Positions 1-12,408 of a stretch of 64,000 nucleotides of DNA are shown piece after piece. The stretch lies in the NCBI RefSeq assembly GCF_055900595.2, contig NZ_CM148325.1; one strand, written 5' to 3'. The translations under genes and the position numbers were made by a program. The notes under the pieces are model-generated. The model did no database searches and had not been told where the DNA came from. It worked only from the letters and a program-made list of their open reading frames with translations. Positions within the stretch are counted from its first letter, which is position 1; every line of letters starts with the position of its first letter.

Positions 1-315
1 ATGATCCGCAAAGCCTTTGTCATGCAGGTTAACCCCGACGCCCACGAAGAGTATCAGCGTCGGCATAATCCAATCTGGCCGGAACTGGAAGCAGTGTTGA
101 AATCTCACGGTGCGCATAACTACGCCATTTACCTCGACAAAGCGCGTAATCTGCTGTTTGCCACGGTAGAGATTGAATCTGAAGAACGGTGGAATGCGGT
201 AGCCAGTACTGATGTTTGCCAACGTTGGTGGAAGTATATGACCGACGTTATGCCAGCTAACCCGGATAACAGCCCAGTCAGTAGCGAGCTGCAAGAAGTG
301 TTTTACCTGCCTTAA
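1..315 (+). CDS. rhaM: L-rhamnose mutarotase (104 aa, complete)
   Basis: ORF translation matches RhaM/YiiL as recalled; begins at window position 1. Confidence 0.9.
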
Positions 316-355
316 TGAGTTGCGGTGCCGGAAAATATCCAGCACCGCGCCTTCA

Positions 356-1750
356 TCAGAAGAAGTATTTAAAGCGAACGCGTGCGCCGTAACGGTCATC
401 AGTATCATCACCGTGTTTTTTATCACCGTCGCTATCCAGAATGGAGTAATAAGTACCAAGGTAAATATTAAAGTTCTCCATATCCATCACATTAGCGAAC
501 TGATAAGACGCATGAATGGTGTGAATGGTGTACGTCCCTTCATCATCAATCCAGCAGTCGTTATCACAAACTACACCGCTGAATTCATCAATCTTATTGT
601 GCGCGTAGATATAACCCAGCTCGAAACGTTTCCACAGCGCGTTAATCCCGGCAGTGAAATCTTTTTCATTATTAGCATCTAAATAGGCGGTATTAAGATT
701 AACCACGACGCCATTTTCCGGATCCGTTTTCAGGCCATTCCAGGTCATGCTCATACCATAGCCGGTACGATCGGACTGATCGACAAAATTACCCTTGCTA
801 TCGGTATAACCATAAGCATTATTTACTACGTTCGCTTCCATCGCTGCGGAAACGGTGAATTCTTCCGTCGGCGACCAGGCAATTACCGGACGCAGATAAG
901 CAACATTTTTCTGCTGCTCCATATCGCGTCCATGATAATTACCGTCATTATATAAAGATGTTCCGTCTTCAAGTAACGTGTTTAATTCAAAATACCAGTT
1001 ATCGAGTTGTTTGCTGACGAGGAAATTACCGCCAGCGTTAGAGCGCCCTCGGCCCTCTTTCATCATATAGATATAACCGCTGCCATCGTCATAAAGATCG
1101 TTCGCAGTATTACCGGAATGTTCAACAAAGGTATCCTGATTCAGCGGGAACATATCGTAGGCTTCAAAACGGCCTACTTTGACCTTCCAGTCGTTTTCTT
1201 TGCCAAAGAAGAATACCGCATCATCGATATTTACTGAACCGTGCATATCCCCCAGCGGTTGTGCGGAGAACCCGGCGAAATAACCATTATCCAGTTTTCG
1301 CATACCATCAAAACCTAACAGAATACGACCATTGAGATTCCACTGTTCATTAGTGGGATCGCTATTCACATCAGCGTTGGTCATTGCCAGCAGGCCATGA
1401 TTACTTTCCGCATCCATATTAAATTCTACGTCGCCGTAGATTTTTAAATCGCCATAACCTGAAAGCAAAAGATTAGGTGAGGTGGAATTTTTCTTTGCAG
1501 ATTCCGCCGTTGCCTGTCCATTAACCGGCGTATTGCCCTGGGCAGCTTTAATTTCGCGGATCTCAGCGGCTTGTTGTGTCTGCAGCTGTTTAACCTGGCT
1601 CTCTGCTTTTGCTGCCCGCATTTCTGCCGCTTCCAGGCGTTCTTCCAGCAATGCCATGCGTTGTTCCAGCGTTAAATGCTGTGTTTTTGCCATTCCGGTA
1701 CTACATGCCAATAATAAACCGATGGCTAAAGATAATGTCGATTTTTTCAT
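356..1750 (-). CDS. Putative outer-membrane sugar-type porin with N-terminal coiled-coil extension (464 aa); not in K-12 as recalled
   Basis: Signal peptide MKKSTLSLAIGLLLACSTGMA; 50-aa heptad-like E/A/Q/L-rich segment; C-terminal ...RFKYFF typical of beta-barrel OMPs; SD agggaa upstream of ATG. Confidence 0.6.
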   Translation of the reverse strand: MKKSTLSLAIGLLLACSTGMAKTQHLTLEQRMALLEERLEAAEMRAAKAESQVKQLQTQQAAEIREIKAAQGNTPVNGQATAESAKKNSTSPNLLLSGYGDLKIYGDVEFNMDAESNHGLLAMTNADVNSDPTNEQWNLNGRILLGFDGMRKLDNGYFAGFSAQPLGDMHGSVNIDDAVFFFGKENDWKVKVGRFEAYDMFPLNQDTFVEHSGNTANDLYDDGSGYIYMMKEGRGRSNAGGNFLVSKQLDNWYFELNTLLEDGTSLYNDGNYHGRDMEQQKNVAYLRPVIAWSPTEEFTVSAAMEANVVNNAYGYTDSKGNFVDQSDRTGYGMSMTWNGLKTDPENGVVVNLNTAYLDANNEKDFTAGINALWKRFELGYIYAHNKIDEFSGVVCDNDCWIDDEGTYTIHTIHASYQFANVMDMENFNIYLGTYYSILDSDGDKKHGDDTDDRYGARVRFKYFF

Positions 1751-2226
1751 TATTTACGTTCCCTGAAATAAAAGAGACCCTACGCTTTCCAAAAGGAATA
1801 CGTATATAGAGAAATATAAGGTGTGCACTTTCTAATTTTTAATCCAACTTCAGCAGGCCGATGGATAGTATCCCGCTGCATAATATGAGTAAATCCGCTG
1901 ATTTCCTGGAACGTGAGGAATATAACAATAGTGCCGTTTTTAACTAAATATCGTAAAAAATATTAGATATAATTCACGCTGACTCATAAGCCACAAATAT
2001 AAATAACCTTGCTGCAAAATATGTGCGGCAGTTAAACATTCACAACATCATTAAATAATGATTTTTTATTCACTGCATTTATTTTTCCCATCAATATGTG
2101 CCTTACACCGCAAAATTTATCCTTCACTCTGCCTTATATTGTCACGACTTCACGACATATCCGCGCTCATCACAAAACCGCCCCGCCGTTACAATTAACT
2201 ATAATATTTTTTCATGGAGTCCAATA

Positions 2227-2673
2227 ATGGCAGCACTTACTGCAAGCTGTATTGACCTGAATATTCAGGGCAATGGCACTTATTCCGTTCTGAAGCAGTT
2301 GGCGACAATGGCGTTACAAAACGGTTTTATCACCGACTCACATCAATTCCTGCAAACCCTGCTGGTGCGCGAAAAAATGCACTCCACCGGTTTTGGTTCT
2401 GGTGTCGCCGTGCCGCACGGTAAAAGCGCCTGTGTTAAACAACCGTTCGTATTATTCGCTCGCAAAGCGCAGGCCATTGACTGGAAAGCCAGCGATGGCG
2501 AAGACGTCAATTGCTGGATCTGCCTCGGCGTGCCGCAAAGTGGCGAAGAGGATCAGGTCAAAATCATCGGCACACTGTGTCGCAAAATTATCCACCAGGA
2601 TTTTATCAACCAACTGCGACAAGGCGACGCCGTCCAGGTGCTTGCTTTGTTAAATCAAACCCTCAGCTCATAA
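2227..2673 (+). CDS. frvA: PTS fructose-like EIIA component (148 aa)
   Basis: Translation matches FrvA as recalled; ATG at 2227 chosen over the longer in-frame ORF from 2098. Confidence 0.85.
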   Translation: MAALTASCIDLNIQGNGTYSVLKQLATMALQNGFITDSHQFLQTLLVREKMHSTGFGSGVAVPHGKSACVKQPFVLFARKAQAIDWKASDGEDVNCWICLGVPQSGEEDQVKIIGTLCRKIIHQDFINQLRQGDAVQVLALLNQTLSS

Positions 2674-2683
2674 GGAAGTGGCG

Positions 2684-4135
2684 ATGGAGTCATCCTTACG
2701 TATTGTCGCGATCACCAACTGCCCCGCCGGGATCGCTCACACCTACATGGTGGCGGAAGCCCTGGAACAGAAAGCCCGTTCTCTCGGTCATACCATTAAA
2801 GTTGAAACTCAAGGATCAAGCGGCGTCGAAAACCGCTTATCCAGCGAAGAGATTGCCGCTGCCGATTACGTGATTCTCGCTACCGGGCGTGGCCTGAGCG
2901 GTGATGATCGCGCGCGATTTGCCGGGAAAAAGGTTTATGAGATTGCCATCTCCCAGGCGCTGAAAAATATCGACCAGATTTTCAGTGAATTACCGACAAA
3001 CTCACAACTTTTTGCCGCAGATAGCGGCGTGAAGCTCGGCAAACAGGAAGTGCAAAGTGGCAGCGTAATGAGCCATCTGATGGCGGGCGTCTCTGCGGCG
3101 CTGCCGTTTGTCATCGGTGGCGGTATCCTGGTGGCGCTTGCCAACATGCTGGTGCAGTTCGGTTTGCCGTATACCGATATGTCGAAAGGTGCGCCGTCGT
3201 TTACCTGGGTGGTTGAATCCATCGGTTATCTCGGTTTCACCTTTATGATCCCCATCATGGGCGCTTATATTGCCTCGTCGATTGCCGATAAACCCGCTTT
3301 CGCTCCGGCGTTTCTGGTTTGTTATCTGGCGAACGACAAAGCCCTGCTCGGCACCCAGTCTGGCGCGGGCTTCCTCGGTGCGGTGGTGCTTGGGCTGGCG
3401 ATTGGCTATTTCGTCTTCTGGTTCCGTAAAGTGCGCCTTGGCAAAGCATTACAACCGCTGCTCGGTTCCATGCTGATCCCGTTCGTTACTCTGCTGGTTT
3501 TTGGCGTACTGACTTACTACGTTATCGGACCGGTGATGTCCGACCTCATGGGCGGGTTGCTGCACTTCCTGAACACCATTCCTCCGTCAATGAAGTTTGC
3601 GGCGGCGTTTCTGGTTGGTGCGATGCTGGCATTCGATATGGGCGGCCCCATCAACAAAACCGCCTGGTTCTTCTGCTTCTCTCTGCTGGAAAAACACATT
3701 TACGACTGGTACGCCATCGTCGGCGTTGTCGCGCTAATGCCGCCTGTCGCGGCGGGTCTTGCGACGTTCATTGCGCCCAAACTGTTTACTCAACAGGAAA
3801 AAGAAGCCGCCAGTAGCGCCATAGTGGTCGGTGCCACAGTCGCAACCGAACCGGCTATTCCTTACGCTCTGGCAGCCCCGTTGCCGATGATTACCGCCAA
3901 TACGCTGGCGGGCGGTATTACCGGCGTGCTGGTGATCGCTTTCGGAATCAAACGGCTGGCACCGGGTTTGGGTATCTTTGACCCGCTGATCGGCCTGATG
4001 TCGCCGGTAGGTTCATTTTATCTGGTGCTGGCGATTGGCCTCGCGCTGAACATTTCATTCATTATCGTCCTGAAAGGATTATGGTTACGCCGCAAAGCCA
4101 AAGCTGCGCAACAGGAGCTTGTCCATGAACATTGA
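2684..4135 (+). CDS. frvB: PTS fructose-like EIIBC component (483 aa)
   Basis: Polytopic membrane protein with N-terminal EIIB domain (CPAGIAHTYM); ATG at 2684; overlaps frvX. Confidence 0.85.
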   Translation: MESSLRIVAITNCPAGIAHTYMVAEALEQKARSLGHTIKVETQGSSGVENRLSSEEIAAADYVILATGRGLSGDDRARFAGKKVYEIAISQALKNIDQIFSELPTNSQLFAADSGVKLGKQEVQSGSVMSHLMAGVSAALPFVIGGGILVALANMLVQFGLPYTDMSKGAPSFTWVVESIGYLGFTFMIPIMGAYIASSIADKPAFAPAFLVCYLANDKALLGTQSGAGFLGAVVLGLAIGYFVFWFRKVRLGKALQPLLGSMLIPFVTLLVFGVLTYYVIGPVMSDLMGGLLHFLNTIPPSMKFAAAFLVGAMLAFDMGGPINKTAWFFCFSLLEKHIYDWYAIVGVVALMPPVAAGLATFIAPKLFTQQEKEAASSAIVVGATVATEPAIPYALAAPLPMITANTLAGGITGVLVIAFGIKRLAPGLGIFDPLIGLMSPVGSFYLVLAIGLALNISFIIVLKGLWLRRKAKAAQQELVHEH

Positions 4136-5195
4136 GTTACTGCAACAGTTGTGCGAAGCCAGCGCCGTCAGCGGCGATGAACAGGAAGTTCGCGACATTC
4201 TGATAAACACGCTGGAACCCTGCGTGAATGAGATCACCTTCGATGGTCTGGGCAGCTTTGTTGCCCGTAAGGGGAATAAAGGGCCGAAAGTTGCCGTTGT
4301 CGGGCATATGGATGAAGTCGGCTTTATGGTCACCCACATCGACGAGAGCGGTTTTCTGCGTTTTACCACCATTGGCGGCTGGTGGAATCAGTCGATGCTC
4401 AACCACCGGGTAACCATACGCACACACAAGGGAGTGAAAATCCCTGGTGTAATTGGCTCCGTCGCCCCACATGCGTTAACCGAAAAGCAAAAGCAACAAC
4501 CGCTGTCATTTGATGAGATGTTCATTGATATTGGCGAAAACAGTCGCGAAGAAGCGGAAAAACGCGGCGTGGAAATTGGCAATTTTATTAGCCCGGAAGC
4601 CAATTTTGCCTGCTGGGGCGAAGATAAAATGGTCGGCAAGGCGTTGGATAACCGCATCGGCTGCGCAATGATGGCTGAGCTATTGCAGACGGTGAATAAC
4701 CCCGAAATTACGCTGTATGGCGTTGGCAGTGTGGAAGAAGAAGTTGGGCTACGCGGGGCGCAAACCTCGGCTGAACACATTAAACCGGATGTGGTGATCG
4801 TGCTGGATACCGCTGTCGCGGGCGATGTTCCAGGCATTGATAACATTAAATATCCGCTGAAACTGGGCAACGGGCCGGGGCTGATGCTGTTTGACAAGCG
4901 GTACTTCCCCAACCAGAAACTGGTAGCAGCGTTAAAAAGCTGTGCCACGCAGAATGATTTACCGCTGCAATTTTCCACCATGAAAACCGGAGCGACGGAT
5001 GGCGGGCGCTACAACGTGATGGGCGGCGGGCGTCCGGTTGTCGCGCTGTGCCTGCCAACGCGTTATCTGCACGCTAACAGCGGCATGATTTCAAAAGCCG
5101 ATTACGATGCTCTGCTCACGTTGATACGGGATTTTCTGACCACCTTAACCGCGGAGAAAGTCAACGCGTTTAGCCAGTTCCGTCAGGTGGATTAA
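4125..5195 (+). CDS. frvX: M42-family peptidase/cellulase-like protein (356 aa)
   Basis: Translation matches FrvX as recalled; start overlaps frvB end; stop overlaps frvR start (TAATG). Confidence 0.85.
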   Translation: MNIELLQQLCEASAVSGDEQEVRDILINTLEPCVNEITFDGLGSFVARKGNKGPKVAVVGHMDEVGFMVTHIDESGFLRFTTIGGWWNQSMLNHRVTIRTHKGVKIPGVIGSVAPHALTEKQKQQPLSFDEMFIDIGENSREEAEKRGVEIGNFISPEANFACWGEDKMVGKALDNRIGCAMMAELLQTVNNPEITLYGVGSVEEEVGLRGAQTSAEHIKPDVVIVLDTAVAGDVPGIDNIKYPLKLGNGPGLMLFDKRYFPNQKLVAALKSCATQNDLPLQFSTMKTGATDGGRYNVMGGGRPVVALCLPTRYLHANSGMISKADYDALLTLIRDFLTTLTAEKVNAFSQFRQVD

Positions 5196-6943
5196 TGCTA
5201 AACGAACGCCAGTTAAAGATTGTCGATCTGCTGGAGCAACAGCCACGCACGCCTGGCGAGCTGGCGCAACAGACTGGCGTTTCCGGCAGGACCATCCTGC
5301 GTGATATTGACTATCTCAACTTTACCCTTAACGGCAAAGCCCGCATTTCCGCCAGTGGCAACGCGGGCTATCAGCTGGAAATCTTCGAGCGTCGCAGCTT
5401 TTTTCAGTTGCTGCAAAAGCACGATAACGACGATCGGCTGCTGGCGCTGTTATTACTGAATACCTTCACTCCCCGTGCGCAACTCGCCTCGACGCTTAAT
5501 TTGCCAGAAACCTGGGTAGCAGAGCGCCTGCCCCGCCTGAAACAGCGCTATGAACGCAGTTTTTGTCTCGCCAGTCGCCCCGGCTTAGGTCATTACATAG
5601 ATGAGACGCAAGAGAAACGCATTATTTTGCTGGCAAATCTGTTACGCAAAGATCCGTTTTTAATTCCGCTGGCGGGCGTAACACGAGACAATTTTCAACA
5701 ATTAACCACCGCCTGCGAAAAGCAACGTCGCTGGCCGCTGATGCAAGGCGACTATCTCTCAAGCCTGATTCTGGCTATTTACGCGTTGCGTAATCAGCTT
5801 ACTGACACATGGCCTGAATATCCCGGTAGCGAGATAAAACAGATTGTTGAATATAGCGGCCTGTTTCTTGGTGATAACGCTGTAAGAACGTTGACGGGGT
5901 TGATAGAAAAACAGCATCAACAGGCGCAGGTTATTTGTGTCGATAATGTGCTGGCATTGCTGCAAAGGGTGCCGGGCATTGCGTCATTGAATATTATTGA
6001 TACGCAGCTGGTTGAGAATATTACCGGGCATTTATTACGTTGCCTTGCCGCGCCGGTGTGGATTGGAGAGCACCGCCAAAGCAGCATGAATAACCTGAAA
6101 GCCGCCTGGCCTGCGGCCTTTGATATGAGTCTGCACTTTATTACGCTACTGCGTGAACAACTCGATATTCCCCTTTTCGACAGCGATCTGATTGGTTTGT
6201 ATTTTGCCTGTGCGCTGGAACGGCATCAAAACGAACGCCAGCCGATCATTTTGCTCTCTGATCAAAACGCGATTGCCACTATTAATCAGCTCGCCATTGA
6301 GCGCGACGTCCTGAATTGTCGGGTGATTATTGCCCGCTGCTTAAGCGAACTGGTTGCCATTCACGAAGAGATTGAGCCGTTATTGATCATTAATAACAGC
6401 CATTATTTACTGGATGACGCGGTCAATAATTGCATCACTGTAAAAAATATCATTACGGCTGCCGGTATCGAACAAATAAAACATTTTCTGGCGACGGCAT
6501 TTATTCGCCAGCAACCGGAGCGTTTTTTTTCTGCCCCCGGAAGTTTTCATTATTCGAATGTACGTGGTGAAAGCTGGCAACATATTACCCGGCAAATATG
6601 TGCGCAATTAGTGACGCAACACCACATTACCGCCGATGAAGCACAACGGATCATCGCCCGCGAAAGCGAAGGCGAAAACCTGATTGTTAATCGTCTCGCC
6701 ATCCCACATTGCTGGAGCGAACAGGAACGACGTTTTCGTGGATTTTTTATTACCCTCGCCCAACCGGTTGAGGTGAATAACGAAGTAGTTAACCATGTGC
6801 TGATCGCCTGTGCCGCCGCCGATGCGCGTCATGAGCTAAAAATATTTAGCTATCTTGCCAGCGTATTGTGCCAGCATCCGGCAGAGGTTATTGCCGGGTT
6901 AACAGGATATGAGGCATTTATGGCGTTACTTCACAAGGGGTGA
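5195..6943 (+). CDS. frvR: frv operon transcriptional regulator (582 aa)
   Basis: N-terminal HTH followed by PRD/EII-like domains; operon position. Confidence 0.85.
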   Translation: MLNERQLKIVDLLEQQPRTPGELAQQTGVSGRTILRDIDYLNFTLNGKARISASGNAGYQLEIFERRSFFQLLQKHDNDDRLLALLLLNTFTPRAQLASTLNLPETWVAERLPRLKQRYERSFCLASRPGLGHYIDETQEKRIILLANLLRKDPFLIPLAGVTRDNFQQLTTACEKQRRWPLMQGDYLSSLILAIYALRNQLTDTWPEYPGSEIKQIVEYSGLFLGDNAVRTLTGLIEKQHQQAQVICVDNVLALLQRVPGIASLNIIDTQLVENITGHLLRCLAAPVWIGEHRQSSMNNLKAAWPAAFDMSLHFITLLREQLDIPLFDSDLIGLYFACALERHQNERQPIILLSDQNAIATINQLAIERDVLNCRVIIARCLSELVAIHEEIEPLLIINNSHYLLDDAVNNCITVKNIITAAGIEQIKHFLATAFIRQQPERFFSAPGSFHYSNVRGESWQHITRQICAQLVTQHHITADEAQRIIARESEGENLIVNRLAIPHCWSEQERRFRGFFITLAQPVEVNNEVVNHVLIACAAADARHELKIFSYLASVLCQHPAEVIAGLTGYEAFMALLHKG

Positions 6944-6998
6944 ACTGTGTCGGATGCGCCGCATCCGACACTGCATTTATCACCAAAATCAAAAACAT

Positions 6999-8054
6999 TT
7001 AACGCAGGCGATTATAATCATCGACCATTTCGTTGTACTCACGTAATGCTCTCGGGAAAGAGTCGTCGACCATCCAACTTGTGTTTGCATCCTGAAGTTG
7101 CTCTTTATCCCAGTCAGAATACGGAACTTTATCTCTGACGCGGCGAACATATTTTTTAGCCTCGAGCTGATATTGATCTGCCGAACTAATGAACGAGGAA
7201 TTCATGCCGCCTTTATCCGCTTCTTTGGCCTGTGCCACCAGCGTTTCAAGTTCAGTCACTTTCTTCATTGCCGCTTCTGCATCAAACTTATCTTGCGATA
7301 TCAGGTTATTAATTTGTTTCGCTGAAATCATGACTGCCAGAGAGTAGTAGTTGAATGTTTTCCCTTCTCTTTGTTCAATATTTTGCAGTTCCGCAAGCTG
7401 GCGCTTATCGTTAATTTCCTGAATCGCCGCATGATAAGATTCTGCTACAGGTTCAAAGGCTTCAAGATTTTTTAAGAATGTCTGGTGCAGCGTTTTCCCT
7501 TTCGCAAACGCATCGTCTTTATAATTTTCCTGGGTGTAATATTTTTCCATTTCGTTAATGGTATTACCCAACGCCACGGCAGCATCAATATAACTCACCG
7601 CCACGCCATCAATAGGTTGCAGCGCAGGCGTTAACGCCACAGCACTTTTTACGCCTTTTTCACACTCAGCGAGGTTGGATTCACTAATACCGTAGATACC
7701 ATAAACAGTACGCTCTTCACCGGTAGGGCCCTGTTTAAAATCTTTCAGCCAGTCAGCATAACGCGCCAGACTGCTCTGTACAGGGATCTGTAACTTGTTG
7801 TAGCACTTGATATAGACATCCATTTTTTCGTCGAAAACCGCTTGTTCATCGACCACCGGTTGAGCAGGCGTTTCAGGTTTAACTTCTGCTTTTGCAACGG
7901 GAGCTTCAGCAGGTTTCGCTTCAGGAGCTGGTGCGGCAGGTTGACTATTGGCAGGCGGGGGCGTTTCTGTTTCGGATTTTTTATCGTCACAACCCGTGAG
8001 ACCGAGGGCCATTATGGCGACTATAATAGCGGAAGATAATAAATTCCTTTTCAT
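6999..8054 (-). CDS. yiiG: Lipoprotein YiiG (351 aa)
   Basis: Lipobox LGLTGC after signal peptide; low-complexity P/A/E linker; matches YiiG as recalled. Confidence 0.85.
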   Translation of the reverse strand: MKRNLLSSAIIVAIMALGLTGCDDKKSETETPPPANSQPAAPAPEAKPAEAPVAKAEVKPETPAQPVVDEQAVFDEKMDVYIKCYNKLQIPVQSSLARYADWLKDFKQGPTGEERTVYGIYGISESNLAECEKGVKSAVALTPALQPIDGVAVSYIDAAVALGNTINEMEKYYTQENYKDDAFAKGKTLHQTFLKNLEAFEPVAESYHAAIQEINDKRQLAELQNIEQREGKTFNYYSLAVMISAKQINNLISQDKFDAEAAMKKVTELETLVAQAKEADKGGMNSSFISSADQYQLEAKKYVRRVRDKVPYSDWDKEQLQDANTSWMVDDSFPRALREYNEMVDDYNRLR

Positions 8055-8264
8055 TTAATTGCCTTATAAATAGATAAATAAGAGTGTGAATATAATAAAT
8101 GAAAAAAGAAAATGTCACTACACGCGTTTTGTTTATAAATAAATCGATAATATTCATAAAATGAATAAGTCCTGTAATTTAATTTCTAAATCACAGGACT
8201 TATTTTAATTAACGGCACAACCTTTGCGGGAGGGAGTGTCATGTCCCCCACCATTAATCATGCA

Positions 8265-10571
8265 CTACATCCCGTAGCGTTCAGCAATAGCAGCATGCTT
8301 CTCTTCATTCGCCCCGGCTTCTTTGGCGAGACGCCACCAGCACAATGGATGTTCCCAGTCAGCGGTCAATTCGTGCAAGGTCTTATCGATATCACCTTTA
8401 GAAATTGAACGCGGCGCACTGATAACAAAGTAGAATGCAGGCAGCGGTTCAGCGCCTTCTCCTTGATGACTGTCCGTTAATGTATAGTCGTCATTACTGT
8501 TGCTCCAGTAGTACCAGTTTCGTTCACGGAGCGCCTCACGGAAAGTATTAAACTCTTCTTCACCAGGCATGACACCTTCGCAGAACCAGGACTCGCCGTA
8601 TTCGGTCGGGATAATGGTTTGCAGGCAGGCATAAAGTGGCGTGAAATTCTTCCGTTCTTCCTCATCCTCTGGTTGGGTATTCAACATTTCTGCATCGAAT
8701 ACCACAACCTCATCAACATGTTGCGGATAATCGGTGCGGTAAGTTGGCTCAATGATCCTTGCTGTTACCGGCCCAATACGTTGAGCATAGTAATAGCGGT
8801 ATTCATAATTTTCCCGGAAGCGGATGTTTAACAGCCCCCATTTTTCGTCAATAAAACCTTCACCTTCCGTAAGTTCGATTTCCAGTTCAGCAGCAATAGC
8901 ACGAACCAAATCCCATTGTTGCAGGATGCTGGCGGTCGCCATGATATCCCACTGGAGATTGCGAATATCTTCTTCACGGCTAATCATCAGTTGCTGCAAT
9001 TGTTGTAAATAATCCAGCTGTCGATCCCAGGCTTCCTGTTTTTGTGCTGCCCAGGAGCACATGCGATAAACGCCAACCCACTCACGCCCTTTTTCGTGTT
9101 GCAGCAACTGTTGCCCAATCGACTCCAGTTCACTCCAGTCTTCCTGTTGGTTGATCACTCGCGCACGGAACCACAAGGCCATATGTAGCAGCCCCGCCTG
9201 TTCATACTGCTTCGCCAGGTGCTCAATGGTTTGCAGATCGTCACGGTGGAGCAATAAATCCAACAGATCGAAGCAAAGACCATTATCTTCCTGGATGTGG
9301 CTTTCGACGTAGCGTTGCAGAAGTTCAATCGACTCATCAATCGCATTACAGGCGTTTAACGCATTGACCAGTTTGCCCAGCAATTCCGCATCATCTGGCG
9401 CGTTCAGGTAAGCGCGGCGGAATGTTTCGACGTCTTTTTCTGGATCTGGTTGCGTTTCTTCATCGCTATTTTCAGGTACTTCTACAACCGGACGAGCAAG
9501 CAACTCTGCTTCTTTGGCGGCGATTTTTTCACTCAGTTCGAGAAACTCACGATCAACCCCCAGTAACACGCGTAATTTTGGAATGTGTCGCTGGGCCAGT
9601 TTCATCGCTATTTTGGCAACCCAGACGGATTCACGCTCCAGCGCCAGGGTAATTTGCAGTTTCGCCAGATTCACCACTTTACGGTGCGCGCCGGCCTGCG
9701 AACGATGCTCCAGCATTTTTTGGATAATGCGCGCCAGCTGCCAGTTGTTTCTTTGTGGATGGCGAGGCAGTAGCGCAGTGATGATCTTGATCCAAATCCC
9801 CCACGAAAAAGGCGTAAGATCAGCCCAGCGCGGCAACTCAGCCCATACGTCTTCGTCCTGTCCACACAACGCCATGATATACAGTTTTTTCAACTGATAA
9901 CTGATACGGTCGCGCCCCCAGTAATCATTTTCTTCTGCCAGTTCATCAATCAATTTGCGTGCTTCATCGTAACGCTGCAGTTCAATCAAAATATCGGCAC
10001 GGGTATTCAATAATGCTTCAATATCATCGTCACCGGATGCTTTAACCGCGTCGATTTGCCGATCCAGGTACGCCAATGCCTCTTCTGCTCTTTTGGAATC
10101 TATCAGTGCGCTGGCATATTCGGTGGACAAACACTGAAAACAGCTCCAGGTTGCATCAATTCGCGCAATGGTTTCTTCACATACTGCCATGCGTTCATTC
10201 GCCCAGCCAGGCGCATCAATATTTTCGTAGCAGGCAGATAAATCCTGGGTAACGCAGATAGATTGCGGGCAATCTTTTGCCTCTTCCCGGTGTGCTTTTT
10301 CAAACAGCGCCACCACGTCTGGCAGCACTTTTTCGCCTTCTTCGCGGTTAGTCAGACGATGGCGCATTTCCCAGTGACCAATAAAAATCTCCAGCCAGGG
10401 ATTTTTCGCCACCTGGGTAAGCGCTTTTACTTCTGGTAATAGCGAATCGCATTTTTCCATTTGCAGGTGCATAACGCTTTCCGAATAATCATCAATAAGC
10501 TGCGGAATATACTCCTGTCCGGCATCGCGTAATTCCTGACTATATTTATTGTACCATTCCCATATATTCAT
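8265..10571 (-). CDS. Hypothetical 768-aa acidic helical protein, co-operonic partner of the HtpG-like ATPase (accessory)
   Basis: Long ORF; ATG 1 nt after the stop of the upstream gene; SD aagga; no enzyme motif recognised by eye. Confidence 0.6.
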   Translation of the reverse strand: MNIWEWYNKYSQELRDAGQEYIPQLIDDYSESVMHLQMEKCDSLLPEVKALTQVAKNPWLEIFIGHWEMRHRLTNREEGEKVLPDVVALFEKAHREEAKDCPQSICVTQDLSACYENIDAPGWANERMAVCEETIARIDATWSCFQCLSTEYASALIDSKRAEEALAYLDRQIDAVKASGDDDIEALLNTRADILIELQRYDEARKLIDELAEENDYWGRDRISYQLKKLYIMALCGQDEDVWAELPRWADLTPFSWGIWIKIITALLPRHPQRNNWQLARIIQKMLEHRSQAGAHRKVVNLAKLQITLALERESVWVAKIAMKLAQRHIPKLRVLLGVDREFLELSEKIAAKEAELLARPVVEVPENSDEETQPDPEKDVETFRRAYLNAPDDAELLGKLVNALNACNAIDESIELLQRYVESHIQEDNGLCFDLLDLLLHRDDLQTIEHLAKQYEQAGLLHMALWFRARVINQQEDWSELESIGQQLLQHEKGREWVGVYRMCSWAAQKQEAWDRQLDYLQQLQQLMISREEDIRNLQWDIMATASILQQWDLVRAIAAELEIELTEGEGFIDEKWGLLNIRFRENYEYRYYYAQRIGPVTARIIEPTYRTDYPQHVDEVVVFDAEMLNTQPEDEEERKNFTPLYACLQTIIPTEYGESWFCEGVMPGEEEFNTFREALRERNWYYWSNSNDDYTLTDSHQGEGAEPLPAFYFVISAPRSISKGDIDKTLHELTADWEHPLCWWRLAKEAGANEEKHAAIAERYGM

Positions 10572-10572
10572 T

Positions 10573-12408
10573 TTATTTTCCTTGATTAATTAAGACAGGA
10601 ATAACCTGAGTAAAATCTTCCAGTGCCTGGTGTAAATCCCACTGCTGTTCTTTATTACCGCTGGAGCACAAAATCACTTTCAGCGATTTTAATAACCGTA
10701 ATGCTGCCGCTGGCTGTTGATGGTGTTGTAATGCCGTCACCAGTTGCATGACACAGGGGTTATTAAGATTGATATACAGACTTGAAGTTTTAGTCTTTTG
10801 GATTTGCGAGGTAAATTGCCGCGCCAGCATTAACGCTGCGGTGCTGATGCGTTTATCTGCGTCATCCTGTTCGAGAATTTGTTTTAATTCTGCTTCGCGG
10901 TCTGGCGTAACCACTAACGGTAAAACGGCGGGTTCGAAGCGGGAGATAATTAATTGCTCGCCATCGCAAAGATGCTCTTCCAGATAAGCAACCTGCTCTT
11001 CGGGTAATTCTGCCAGGCTGAACAACTGCTCATTACCCGTTTGCGTACCGACTTCGATAATCCGGCAGTGATATAACAGCGCCCAACGACGTAAAAATGG
11101 CACCACCGCATAACGATCGCCACGGGCTACGGGCCGTTGCAGAATATGAAACAACATCTCTTCAAAACCGCCGTCGCGGCTTAACAGAATATGAATACTG
11201 TTATTAACGCGTAAATCCTTCGCCAGCAGCGCACCTTTTGACGTTGGCACCTGCAGGCGATCTTTGAGTAAATCACACAGACGATCATCACACAAGGCCG
11301 CACCCAGCAACGCTTCGTTGTGGCGCATTAATACACGCCGCCAGATTTCTGGCTGATTTTGTGCGAGATCGGACAAACCAGAAATCAGCGCCTCTTTTAA
11401 CGCCTCCTGCACCGCAACCCAGGTTTCGTCCCGCTGGAGATCTTCCCGGCTCGCCGTAGGCGTTAGTTTCGATGACTCAATCACGCCGCCAATAAATCCG
11501 GCCCAGGGAGGTAACAACTCACGCGCTTCATCATCCAGTAACATACCGCGCAAAAACAGCGACAGGTTACGGTTATCGCTGGTGCCGTAGGTTGCGCCAT
11601 CCTGAATCCATAAAATCCCAACCGCGTCGCTCATCCCCACGGGCACCACCGGAATGGTGCAAATCGGTTCGAAGGAGGATTCAAACTGTGCGGCAAAGGC
11701 GAGATTTTTACGCTGTACCAGCGCGCGGTGCATGGTTACGCCTTCAGGGGCAACTTCACGCCACGGTGGTTGCAGTTTATTCACCGGCTCGCGGGCATCA
11801 CCGACATAGACTGGTTCGTGCAGCAATATGCAATAGCGTGAAAGAACGCGGTTCAGCAAATTGTTACTCGCCAGATGGCTGTACTCTTCTTTGAGCGTCA
11901 GAATCACCTGCGTACCCGTTTCCGAGGACTGATGCGGCGTAACGGTATATTTTTGCCCGTCGGTAGAGTGGTATTTCCAGCTCTGATCCGGCGTTTGCCA
12001 GGATGTGGTCAACACCGTGACCTCTTTTGCCAGTACAAAGGCCGACAAAAAACCGAGGCCGAACATACCAATTAAACCGGTGTTGTCATCCTGCTGGCGC
12101 AACATTCGGGTATAACCCACGCCCACTGTAGCAAGGAAGCCGTGAATTTCGCTTTCTGTCAGACCCGCACCGGTATCAGTAATAGTGATAGTGGACTTCG
12201 CCACGTCAGCCACCACACGAATTTGGTTATCCTTTGGCGCATCGGGCTGCTCAATCCTGCGACGCACAATCGCATCATGGCCGTTCTGCACCAGCTCGCG
12301 CACGGCAACTACGGGAGTGGAGTAAAGATGCTTACTAAGCACCTCAATTAAACCGTTTAAATTAACTTCTGTAGAATATGAACTGCCAGGTAACTGTAAT
12401 GTACTCAT
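10573..12408 (-). CDS. Divergent Hsp90/HtpG-family GHKL ATPase paralogue (611 aa, accessory)
   Basis: N-terminal motifs RELVQNGHDA (cf. HtpG RELISNASDA), ITDTGAGL (cf. SDNGVGM), GMFGLGFLSAF (cf. GQFGVGFYSAF); length close to HtpG. Confidence 0.75.
   Translation of the reverse strand: MSTLQLPGSSYSTEVNLNGLIEVLSKHLYSTPVVAVRELVQNGHDAIVRRRIEQPDAPKDNQIRVVADVAKSTITITDTGAGLTESEIHGFLATVGVGYTRMLRQQDDNTGLIGMFGLGFLSAFVLAKEVTVLTTSWQTPDQSWKYHSTDGQKYTVTPHQSSETGTQVILTLKEEYSHLASNNLLNRVLSRYCILLHEPVYVGDAREPVNKLQPPWREVAPEGVTMHRALVQRKNLAFAAQFESSFEPICTIPVVPVGMSDAVGILWIQDGATYGTSDNRNLSLFLRGMLLDDEARELLPPWAGFIGGVIESSKLTPTASREDLQRDETWVAVQEALKEALISGLSDLAQNQPEIWRRVLMRHNEALLGAALCDDRLCDLLKDRLQVPTSKGALLAKDLRVNNSIHILLSRDGGFEEMLFHILQRPVARGDRYAVVPFLRRWALLYHCRIIEVGTQTGNEQLFSLAELPEEQVAYLEEHLCDGEQLIISRFEPAVLPLVVTPDREAELKQILEQDDADKRISTAALMLARQFTSQIQKTKTSSLYINLNNPCVMQLVTALQHHQQPAAALRLLKSLKVILCSSGNKEQQWDLHQALEDFTQVIPVLINQGK

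Follow-up and report, generated by a model that had tools for sequence, protein, structure and literature searches.

The frvABXR operon of Escherichia coli as a mobile PTS-aminopeptidase cassette with a possible sugar-amino acid cargo

We analysed a stretch of 64,000 nucleotides (contig NZ_CM148325.1 of RefSeq assembly GCF_055900595.2; hereafter the window), in which positions 2227-6943 carry frvABXR, an operon that joins a transporter of the phosphotransferase system (PTS) to a peptidase of family M42 and a regulator. The reading that we favour, tentatively and at somewhat less than an even chance, is that frvABXR is a self-contained, horizontally mobile catabolic cassette, whose cargo is likely a sugar carrying an amino acid or a short peptide and not free fructose. 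What is certain is that the operon is intact and under selection and is not a chance arrangement of genes. The operon itself is not new. It is the known and named frvABXR of E. coli, annotated since 1994 and reportedly described in that year by Reizer et al. (Protein Sci 3:440), and M42 proteins have long stood in PDB entries under the name "Frv operon protein FrvX".

The four open reading frames, frvA, frvB, frvX and frvR, are intact, co-directional and tightly spaced (Table 1). The last 11 nt of frvB are also the first of frvX, which in turn has one base in common with frvR. Each of the four proteins exceeds the cutoff of the NCBIfam equivalog specific to its gene: FrvA scored 284 bits on NF007389 (cutoff 151), FrvB 1033 bits on NF008493 (cutoff 806), FrvX 837 bits on NF007367 (cutoff 569) and FrvR 1023 bits on NF007366 (cutoff 426). 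The open reading frames, the Pfam and NCBIfam assignments and the synteny with K-12 b3897-b3900 together confirm the operon of PTS EIIA and EIIBC genes with an M42 gene that an earlier note had read from the letters of the window. Positions 1-8200 are 100% identical to several E. coli chromosomes from human and canine isolates, in one of which PGAP calls the same four genes. Compared with frvABXR of K-12, gene order, lengths and products are all identical and the FrvX protein is 97.8% identical, with a DNA identity of about 94-95% for the allele in the window; the window has, in addition, a RafY-like porin gene between rhaM and frvA.

The partners of the transporter were followed beyond the Enterobacterales. 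A genome scan at species level, with FrvX as the seed, brought up 74 non-enterobacterial M42 loci (36-44% identity), and 72 of these had no fructose-type PTS within 8 kb; a FruA-like transporter was found in only one (L075, 2.4 kb away). A general linkage of M42 peptidases to the PTS was rejected, as only 2 of the 74 loci lay near any PTS at all. The nearest distinct relative of FrvX in an exhaustive representative search was P0245, at 43% identity, from a Mycoplasmatales bin (L088). There the start of the M42 gene overlaps the end of the transporter gene, and the EIIBC part of the transporter is 61% identical to FrvB. When the L088 transporter was used as the query, transporters of the FrvB type, at 58-69% identity, proved common in six genera: Listeria, Enterococcus, Loigolactobacillus, Companilactobacillus, Cytobacillus and Granulicatella. 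The idea that FrvX orthologs are confined to Enterobacterales proved wrong, since seeding with the transporter found a Listeria FrvX of 63% identity. The link between PTS and peptidase belongs to the FrvB-type transporter, not to the M42 family.

Our non-enterobacterial sample consists of only eight FrvB-type loci (Table 1). A clan-MH aminopeptidase is encoded in six of the eight, in three cases an M42 enzyme and in three a PepT-like M20 enzyme (TIGR01883). The gene beside these transporters that reads at first as an "aminotransferase" is a C-S beta-lyase of the PatB/MalY family, with 301-385 bits on TIGR04350 (cutoff 340), and among solved structures E. coli MalY (1D2F, 1.8e-102) comes nearest to it. 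This lyase is present in seven of the eight loci. As a control, a PatB-like gene was sought within 8 kb in the 74 M42 loci and was found in none (Fisher p = 2e-9). In L099, a gene for RidA (Rid family, 149 bits) and an alanine-dehydrogenase-like gene (3294-4726) stand directly upstream of the lyase, EIIABC and M42 genes, a context that fits a beta-elimination yielding 2-aminoacrylate, pyruvate and ammonia. Between E. coli and Listeria newyorkensis, the identity is 76% for FrvB, 63% for FrvX, 37% for FrvA and 35% for FrvR. The values for FrvB and FrvX are about the same as those between E. coli and Hafnia, and the cassette has therefore moved between phyla.

FrvA has its His64 within the motif VAVPHGK, as read from the translation, and the Cys13 motif of FrvB, TNCPAGIAHT, does not vary among 12 FrvB-type sequences from two phyla. 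What, then, would such a transporter carry? One answer is that FrvAB imports a free ketose or hexose (fructose, mannose or similar), and that FrvX is an ordinary cytosolic aminopeptidase merely on the same transcript, for instance for carbon/nitrogen balance. We consider this unlikely. It is true that FrvA (147 bits on TIGR00848, cutoff 103.5) and FrvB (TIGR00829 and TIGR01427) are above the cutoffs of the fructose-PTS subfamily models, that two FrvB-type loci (L095 and L100) have no peptidase, that FrvX is a canonical M42 enzyme about as near to YsdC and the archaeal TETs as to anything, and that the cassette encodes no second sugar-processing enzyme. On the FruA equivalog NF007984, however, FrvB scored 271 bits, far under the cutoff of 793, and its 256 bits on the model of the mannosylglycerate transporter MngA (cutoff 763) are about equal; by NCBIfam scoring FrvB does not qualify as a FruA ortholog with fructose as its substrate. 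A passenger peptidase also fits poorly with a frvB-frvX overlap and a gene order that are kept across phyla, with the PepT-like M20 enzyme that usually substitutes where M42 is missing, with a PatB lyase linked in seven of eight loci against none of 74 controls, and with three unrelated E. coli M42 genes that all lie within PTS clusters.

The comparison with MngA and MngB of E. coli is instructive on the point of cargo. MngA, like FrvB, belongs to the fructose family of the PTS, its cargo is a sugar conjugate (2-O-alpha-mannosyl-D-glycerate), and the phosphorylated product is cleaved by a hydrolase of the same operon. That hydrolase, MngB, is a GH38 mannosidase and thus unlike the peptidase FrvX. 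The earlier note had held that the operon suits a glycoside or amino-sugar conjugate better than fructose. The preference for a conjugate gains from the FruA and MngA scores and from the aminopeptidase and lyase partners, and the direction of an amide-bonded conjugate survives; the amino sugar itself does not, as no deacetylase, amino-sugar deaminase or isomerase co-occurs with the cassette in the loci examined.

Within the Enterobacterales, we examined 11 loci with long flanks, including those of Hafnia, Buttiauxella, two Enterobacter, two Citrobacter, Superficieibacter, Kluyvera, RIT691 and K-12. All of them have the genes in the order frvA-B-X-R, and no further catabolic gene accompanies the cassette. 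The flanks vary, and in Hafnia the cassette occupies an unrelated site between xanthine-dehydrogenase-like genes and ispH. The overlap of the frvB stop with the frvX start is kept in E. coli, Buttiauxella and Enterobacter as well as in L088 and L099. A metagenome scan with a Firmicute-led FrvB alignment added 78 enterobacterial loci and one new informative Firmicute locus; in the enterobacterial loci with enough flank (about 50), the same frv genes recur throughout, bar an occasional split or missing frvR or frvX. The PatB-like lyase is absent from all enterobacterial frv loci examined, the roughly 50 metagenomic ones included, and no PatB-like open reading frame occurs in the 64-kb window. 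Among 5,426 complete E. coli genomes, about 78% carry frv. In the comparison with K-12, the synonymous divergence (dS) across the frv genes is 0.16-0.30, and the ratio of non-synonymous to synonymous divergence (dN/dS) is 0.004 for frvB, 0.07 for frvX, 0.09 for frvR and 0.14 for frvA; in frvB there is one non-synonymous change against 66 synonymous ones. The frv operon is maintained by purifying selection in both lineages.

Several irregular forms were seen. Metagenomic E. coli contigs (L126, L141, L114 and L137) have an occasional split frvR or truncated or missing frvX and frvR, and three Shigella FrvX variants (P0073, P0078 and P0086) are truncated to 299-302 aa; these suggest sporadic decay of frv in some lineages. 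In APEC E19019, a B2-type strain, a single deletion (L006, 10744-11463) removes frvABXR together with the 5' part of yiiG and spares the porin gene and fdhD. In E. coli GCA_014328915.1 (L097, 6001-8487), a 25-bp deletion at the 3' end of frvB produces an in-frame FrvB-FrvX protein of 828 aa, and there are two more fused gene calls (P0452 and P0455). Such fusions were considered as Rosetta-stone evidence and rejected, as the one inspected is this strain-specific deletion.

Could the operon be a silent relic, a cryptic acquisition without present function in E. coli? Such an account is compatible with any chemistry in the donor lineage, and we regard it as rather improbable. The absence of frv from part of the complete genomes, with its clean deletion into the 5' end of yiiG in the B2-type strain, speaks for it, as do the split or missing frvR and frvX of metagenomic E. 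coli, the truncated Shigella FrvX, and the lack of a consensus promoter upstream of frvA. Our literature search turned up no published frv phenotype, and frv gives no signal in a transcriptome atlas of 43 substrates. A relic, though, would hardly show strong purifying selection at a dS of about 0.2, with the ratio of changes seen in frvB and a dN/dS of 0.07-0.14 in the other genes. The catalytic and phospho-acceptor residues are all intact, and the promoter architecture is conserved across genera.

The earlier description of the third gene as an M42 enzyme is secure. FrvX gives a full-length match to PF05343 (5.8e-101, profile positions 1-292), and its nearest solved structures are B. subtilis YsdC (1VHE, 7.6e-87), 5DS0 and 9QR6 (the TET of M. 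jannaschii), followed by TET2 of P. horikoshii (PhTET2; 1Y0R, 7.5e-68); the E. coli-type paralog YpdE (1YLO, 8e-50) is much more distant. H61, D63, D175 and E205 of FrvX align with H68, D70, D182 and E212 of PhTET2, and E206, D228 and H316 with E213, D235 and H323. We take H61, D175, E206, D228 and H316 to be the metal ligands, with D63 beside them. All seven aligned residues are retained by FrvX of K-12, by its paralogs YpdE and SgcX, by the orthologs from Hafnia, Buttiauxella and Enterobacter, and by the PTS-linked M42 enzymes of three non-enterobacterial loci. In PhTET2, E212 is the general base (PMC3511314). Judged by these residues, FrvX is certainly catalytically intact and built for aminopeptidase activity. 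It falls below the cutoffs of the glutamyl and lysyl aminopeptidase equivalogs, and none of its Pfam matches is to a glycoside hydrolase. FrvX shares with the TET/M42 aminopeptidases (1Y0R, 1VHE, 9QR6 and 1YLO) homology over the full length, the same ligands and the catalytic Glu; unlike them in general, its gene is embedded in a PTS operon and translationally coupled to the transporter gene. E. coli has three M42 enzymes, of which YpdE alone has been characterised (PMC3511314). With YpdE, FrvX shares just 35% identity and with SgcX 28%, and all three K-12 paralogs lie within PTS clusters (frv, fry and sgc).

FrvX could instead be a deacylase in vivo, one that strips the N-acyl group off an amino-sugar phosphate after import, as NagA and AgaA do, or as ArgE and DapE do on amino acids; we think this quite improbable. 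The M42 peptidases and M20 deacylases belong to one metallohydrolase clan, the N-terminal part of FrvX gives weak matches to the DapE, ArgE and LysW-lysine hydrolase models, and one M42 member (TIGR03106) has been assigned to the metabolism of the osmoprotectant NAGGN. Amide hydrolases are also at home in amino-sugar PTS operons, as in nagA, agaA and chbG. No fructose-family PTS, however, is known to carry amino sugars. For the enzymes that replace M42 in Enterococcus, Cytobacillus and L101, the best-scoring models are PepT-like tripeptidases and not ArgE or DapE, the deaminase or isomerase of an amino-sugar pathway does not accompany the cassette, and the M42 enzymes that have been assayed lack aminoacylase activity (PMC3511314).

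The glycoside side of the earlier note, with its label of M42 aminopeptidase/cellulase family, did not hold once FrvX was compared with characterised M42 enzymes. CelM and TmPep1050, from which the cellulase label derives, have no endoglucanase activity, are cobalt-activated leucine aminopeptidases, and resemble no glycoside hydrolase or other carbohydrate-active enzyme family (PMC3511314); on this published enzymology, a "cellulase" role of M42 was rejected. It is scarcely credible, therefore, that FrvAB imports a glycoside or oligosaccharide supplied by the RafY-type porin and that FrvX is a cellulase-like phospho-glycosidase, although old "endoglucanase" labels on M42 proteins (in PDB names and the sgcX annotation), the MngA precedent for glycoside uptake in the fructose family and the divergent glycoporin gene beside frvA could be quoted for it, since against these stand the enzymology, the complete aminopeptidase active site of FrvX and the independent inheritance of the porin. 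The porin of the window is a RafY-like glycoporin (Porin_8, 3e-154), encoded divergently 476 bp upstream of frvA. It occurs in 2,543 complete E. coli genomes (about 47%) and frv in 4,184, and the two are adjacent in only 1,371. In K-12, frv is present and the porin is not, and in the B2-type strain the reverse holds. In Enterobacter sp. ENT03 the porin gene lies beside LacI, GH36 alpha-galactosidase and LacY-type genes, and E. hormaechei has the same raffinose-type LacI/GH36/LacY genes in the same place with no porin. Based on this independent presence and absence and on the raffinose-type context in Enterobacter, the porin was rejected as a member of the frv operon; it is probably a leftover of a raffinose-type cluster. 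Since it is independent of frv, it lends no support to a glycoside substrate. The porin gene also has 200 further matching places on plasmids.

FrvR is large and multidomain, as the earlier note had stated: its 582 residues run from helix-turn-helix (HTH) through to EIIA domains. Pfam recognises an N-terminal HTH_11 domain (1.1e-10) and a C-terminal PTS_EIIA_2 domain (4.7e-14, residues 455-560) and leaves some 380 residues between them unassigned; a model of AcpB/EbpR/MafR matches residues 4-74. An AlphaFold2 model built from 28 orthologs (mean pLDDT 84) divides the protein into an HTH domain (1-63), a winged HTH domain (66-135), a helical region of degenerate PTS regulation domains (PRDs; 139-343), an alpha/beta EIIB-like domain (349-439) and an EIIA domain (450-582). 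The best Foldseek matches, over about 480 columns, were MgaSpn (5WAY), AtxA (4R6I), the E. faecalis Mga-family protein 3SQN and AcpB, with E values of 1e-9 to 1e-10 for MgaSpn and AtxA, and the C-terminal part resembles EIIA-Ntr and EIIA-Mtl in fold (TM-scores of 0.7). A sequence search of the PDB with FrvR gave no match; the comparison of folds alone succeeded. Residues 139-343 superpose on the PRDs of Mga and AtxA and align with PRD2 of a bona fide PRD activator. By this model, FrvR is a regulator of the Mga/AtxA fold with degenerate PRDs and a C-terminal EIIA domain. It is certainly a PTS-linked regulator.

FrvR has features of two groups of regulators. With MgaSpn, AtxA and AcpB it shares the HTH and Mga winged helix, the double-PRD-like core and the EIIB-like domain, whereas Mga and AtxA lack the EIIA domain. 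The activators MtlR, LicR and ManR have the same domain order as FrvR, and in MtlR and LicR there is likewise a C-terminal EIIA(Mtl/Fru) domain with a PH motif; in contrast to that class, FrvR keeps a single conserved PRD histidine, H279. H279, R282, Y336 and H505 do not vary among six FrvR orthologs from two phyla. Of these, the two histidines are the candidates for phosphorylation: H279 lies in an H..R motif of PRD2, and H505 in the sequence AIPH that corresponds to the EIIA "PH" motif. Truncated FrvR clusters in the protein database are mostly "partial" entries at contig ends and were not used as evidence of decay.

An alignment of the 170 nt upstream of frvA from the 11 enterobacterial loci displayed three conserved islands, which are listed for the window in Table 1. 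The first resembles a CRP site. Its aligned form is TGTG-N8-CACA, and the copy in the window, a tentative one, matches only about 7 of 10 positions of the CRP consensus, TGTGA-N6-TCACA. The second is an imperfect palindrome, for which the aligned enterobacterial consensus is (A/T)TGTCA-N8/9-TGACAT. The copy at 2140-2158 is the single match in the 64-kb window, where 0.12 would be expected by chance, and at least one match occurred in 12 of 100 shuffles of the window. The palindrome stands upstream of frvA in every FrvR-bearing locus examined, from E. coli to Listeria, and is present also in Loigolactobacillus, Cytobacillus and Companilactobacillus; Enterococcus has two copies with TGTCC left halves, and the Hafnia copy has one mismatch in its left half. 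It is absent from the two loci with an RpiR regulator, L088 and L099. These have instead an upstream palindrome TGTGAA-N4-TTCACA (at about 5040-5060 and 4740-4760, respectively), which may be a different operator. The third island is a -10-like hexamer, and the spacing from palindrome to hexamer is 31 nt in both E. coli and Listeria; the window also has a perfect, strain-specific TATAAT at 2200-2205. A scan with the sigma-70 consensus found no full promoter and no recognisable -35 upstream of frvA, which fits an activator-dependent promoter. The palindrome at 2140-2158 is presumably the FrvR operator of such a promoter.

How might these parts work together? The transporter and the peptidase probably act on the same molecule, because their genes are coupled translationally and co-inherited across phyla and because M42 is replaced by another aminopeptidase. 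From the residues and partners described above, a plausible cargo class is a sugar bearing an amino acid or peptide, with a lyase in Gram-positive bacteria that finishes on a Cys- or Ser-type residue. We infer the following scheme, in which cargo class, FrvX reaction, FrvR binding, activation and phosphorylation, and CRP control are all predictions. A phosphoryl relay would run from the general PTS proteins to His64 of FrvA and on to Cys13 of FrvB, and the EIIC domain of FrvB would import and phosphorylate the sugar part of the cargo. FrvX would then cleave the amide bond beside the free alpha-amino group, releasing an amino acid and a phosphorylated sugar or glyco-amino acid. In most Gram-positive versions, the MalY/PatB beta-lyase, a pyridoxal phosphate enzyme, would strip the beta-substituent from a Cys- or Ser-like residue to give pyruvate and ammonia. 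FrvR would bind TGTCA-N8/9-TGACA, with its centre some 53 nt before the predicted transcription start, and activate a promoter with a weak -35. Phosphorylation by the PTS at H279 and H505 would set the activity of FrvR, which would in this way report transport by FrvAB, and the CRP-like site may contribute catabolite control.

A number of observations weigh against this scheme. On the side of the enzyme, characterised M42 enzymes hydrolyse ordinary peptides; YsdC, the nearest solved relative of FrvX, is not described as PTS-linked; and CelM and TmPep1050 fail to deblock N-acetyl-Leu-pNA (PMC3511314). On the side of the pathway, the E. coli cassette has no lyase, so that the transfer of the Gram-positive pathway to E. 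coli may be incomplete, and no enzyme of the cassette would split the sugar phosphate from the aglycone left after FrvX has acted. Loigolactobacillus (L095) and Companilactobacillus (L100) lack the peptidase, so that hydrolysis is either dispensable or provided in trans. About 22% of complete E. coli genomes do without frv altogether. On the side of the regulator, Pfam detects no PRD in FrvR, Tyr336 stands in place of the canonical second His of PRD2 ("LHF"), and the EIIB-like loop, LLSDQ, carries Ser355 and lacks a Cys conserved among the orthologs. In MtlR, the corresponding loop bears a phosphorylatable Cys. The Ser355 loop would, by our own inference, mark the site of the EIIB-like phospho-acceptor, and together with the degenerate PRDs it leaves the scheme of phospho-control in FrvR uncertain. 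Finally, full-text searches on the frv genes and related M42 enzymes found no paper that assigns a substrate to frv, in agreement with the earlier note, which knew of none. An atlas of July 2026 that covers the E. coli transcriptome on 43 carbon sources does not mention frv and still calls the substrate of the paralogous sgc operon unknown (PMC13343008).

A PTS that is paired with peptidases or lyases is not peculiar to frv. In K-12 there are the clusters fryB-fryC-ypdF(M24)-ypdE-fryA and sgcX-B-C-Q-A-E-R. Lactobacillus sakei LT-13 has an 8-kb cluster of two PRD proteins, an aminopeptidase, lactose-family PTS IIA, IIB and IIC proteins, RDD, an aminopeptidase and MalY, and this MalY has beta-lyase and racemase activity in vitro, with its physiological role unknown (PMC5845896). 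The Erysipelotrichales bin L059 contains a cluster of the same design with two M42 genes. Like frv, the fry, sgc, E. coli malXY and L. sakei clusters combine a PTS with clan-MH peptidases and/or a MalY-type lyase and are likewise without a defined substrate. They differ from frv in that their transporters belong to other families (Gat, Lac and Glc) and their M42 paralogs are 28-35% identical. The pairing is thus found in three PTS families, and the frv-linked lyases are closest to E. coli MalY. The use of Cys-Gly-3M3SH by Staphylococcus hominis follows the logic proposed here for frv: the transporter DtpT, the dipeptidase PepA and the C-S beta-lyase PatB act on a dipeptide cysteine-S-conjugate and yield an amino acid, pyruvate and ammonia (PMC7385124). 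In S. hominis, however, the transporter is a proton-coupled peptide transporter, the genes are not clustered, and the conjugated group is an alcohol and not a sugar.

A wider version of the favoured reading can be drawn from these comparisons, and we think it unlikely to hold as a whole. It proposes a pathway across phyla in which the frv-type PTS works with an aminopeptidase of clan MH, either M42 or PepT-like M20, and with a beta-lyase of the MalY/PatB type. Its substrates would be glyco-amino acids or short glycopeptides with the sugar on a Cys- or Ser-like beta-carbon, a class so far undescribed for the PTS. The sugar would be phosphorylated on entry, the peptide trimmed, and the remainder split by beta-elimination into pyruvate, ammonia and a (thio)sugar phosphate. 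The Enterobacterales would keep a reduced version, with MalY or MetC acting in trans.

The surroundings of the operon hold two observations of their own. The segment 1-8200 (rhaM-frv-yiiG) is unusually divergent for E. coli, with 94-95% DNA identity to K-12 and a dS of 0.15-0.30, and only 8 of 5,422 genomes are at least 99% identical to it, which suggests a deep lineage or an old recombinant segment. Between yiiG and fdhD, the window has a two-gene insertion (8265-12408, minus strand) that is not in K-12. Its products are a TPR protein of 768 aa and a GHKL/HSP90-like ATPase of 611 aa (HATPase_c_3 1.4e-9, HSP90 4e-8). PADLOC gave only a weak TmtA match (5e-6), and the insertion may be an uncharacterised accessory or defence-like module.

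Table 1. Features of the frv region in the window and gene orders of the FrvB-type loci outside the Enterobacterales
Feature	Position	Strand	Description
rhaM	1-315		NCBI annotation of identical chromosome
"carbohydrate porin" (RafY-like)	356-1750	minus	NCBI annotation of identical chromosome
CRP-like site TGTGC-N6-CCGCA (tentative)	2097..2112	+	GTG...C.CA invariant in 11 enterobacterial sequences
Candidate FrvR operator, imperfect palindrome TGTCAcgacttcaCGACAT	2140..2158	+	Family consensus TGTCA-N8/9-TGACA
-10-like hexamer TACAAT	2190..2195	+	TAnnnT invariant in 11 enterobacterial sequences
frvA	2227..2673	+	PTS EIIA (Fru/Mtl/Ntr type); Pfam PTS_EIIA_2 6.6e-34; predicted phospho-His64
frvB	2684..4135	+	PTS EIIB-EIIC, fructose family; PTS_IIB 9.5e-21, PTS_EIIC 1.3e-33; predicted phospho-Cys13
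frvX	4125..5195	+	M42 (TET-type) dinuclear metallo-aminopeptidase; Peptidase_M42 5.8e-101
frvR	5195..6943	+	582-aa regulator; HTH_11 N-terminal, PTS_EIIA_2 C-terminal
yiiG	6999-8054	minus	NCBI annotation of identical chromosome
L088, Mycoplasmatales bin			RpiR-EIIABC-M42-lyase
L094, Listeria newyorkensis			EIIA-EIIBC-M42-lyase-FrvR
L095, Loigolactobacillus backii			EIIA-EIIBC-lyase-FrvR
L096, Enterococcus sp. 669A			EIIA-EIIBC-lyase-FrvR-PepT-like M20
L098, Cytobacillus sp. Hz8			EIIA-EIIBC-lyase-FrvR-PepT-like M20
L099, genome bin GCA_049070185.1			RpiR-RidA-alanine-dehydrogenase-like-lyase-EIIABC-M42
L100, Companilactobacillus			EIIA-EIIBC only
L101, metagenomic relative of Enterococcus			lyase-EIIA-EIIBC-FrvR-PepT-like M20

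E. coli, the best-studied bacterium, has several orphan PTS operons. The frv operon is among them, and its pairing of a transporter with an aminopeptidase has gone unexplained for 30 years. The cassette held in common with Listeria and Enterococcus, the linkage to a lyase and to interchangeable aminopeptidases, and the candidate FrvR operator that recurs across phyla are useful leads to its function. If the cargo is indeed a conjugate, the PTS would gain a new class of substrate, and a function would be at hand for the MalY-type lyases and for the three PTS-linked M42 peptidases of E. coli. The cross-phylum pathway, if true, would also explain the fry/ypdEF, sgc, malXY and L. sakei clusters.

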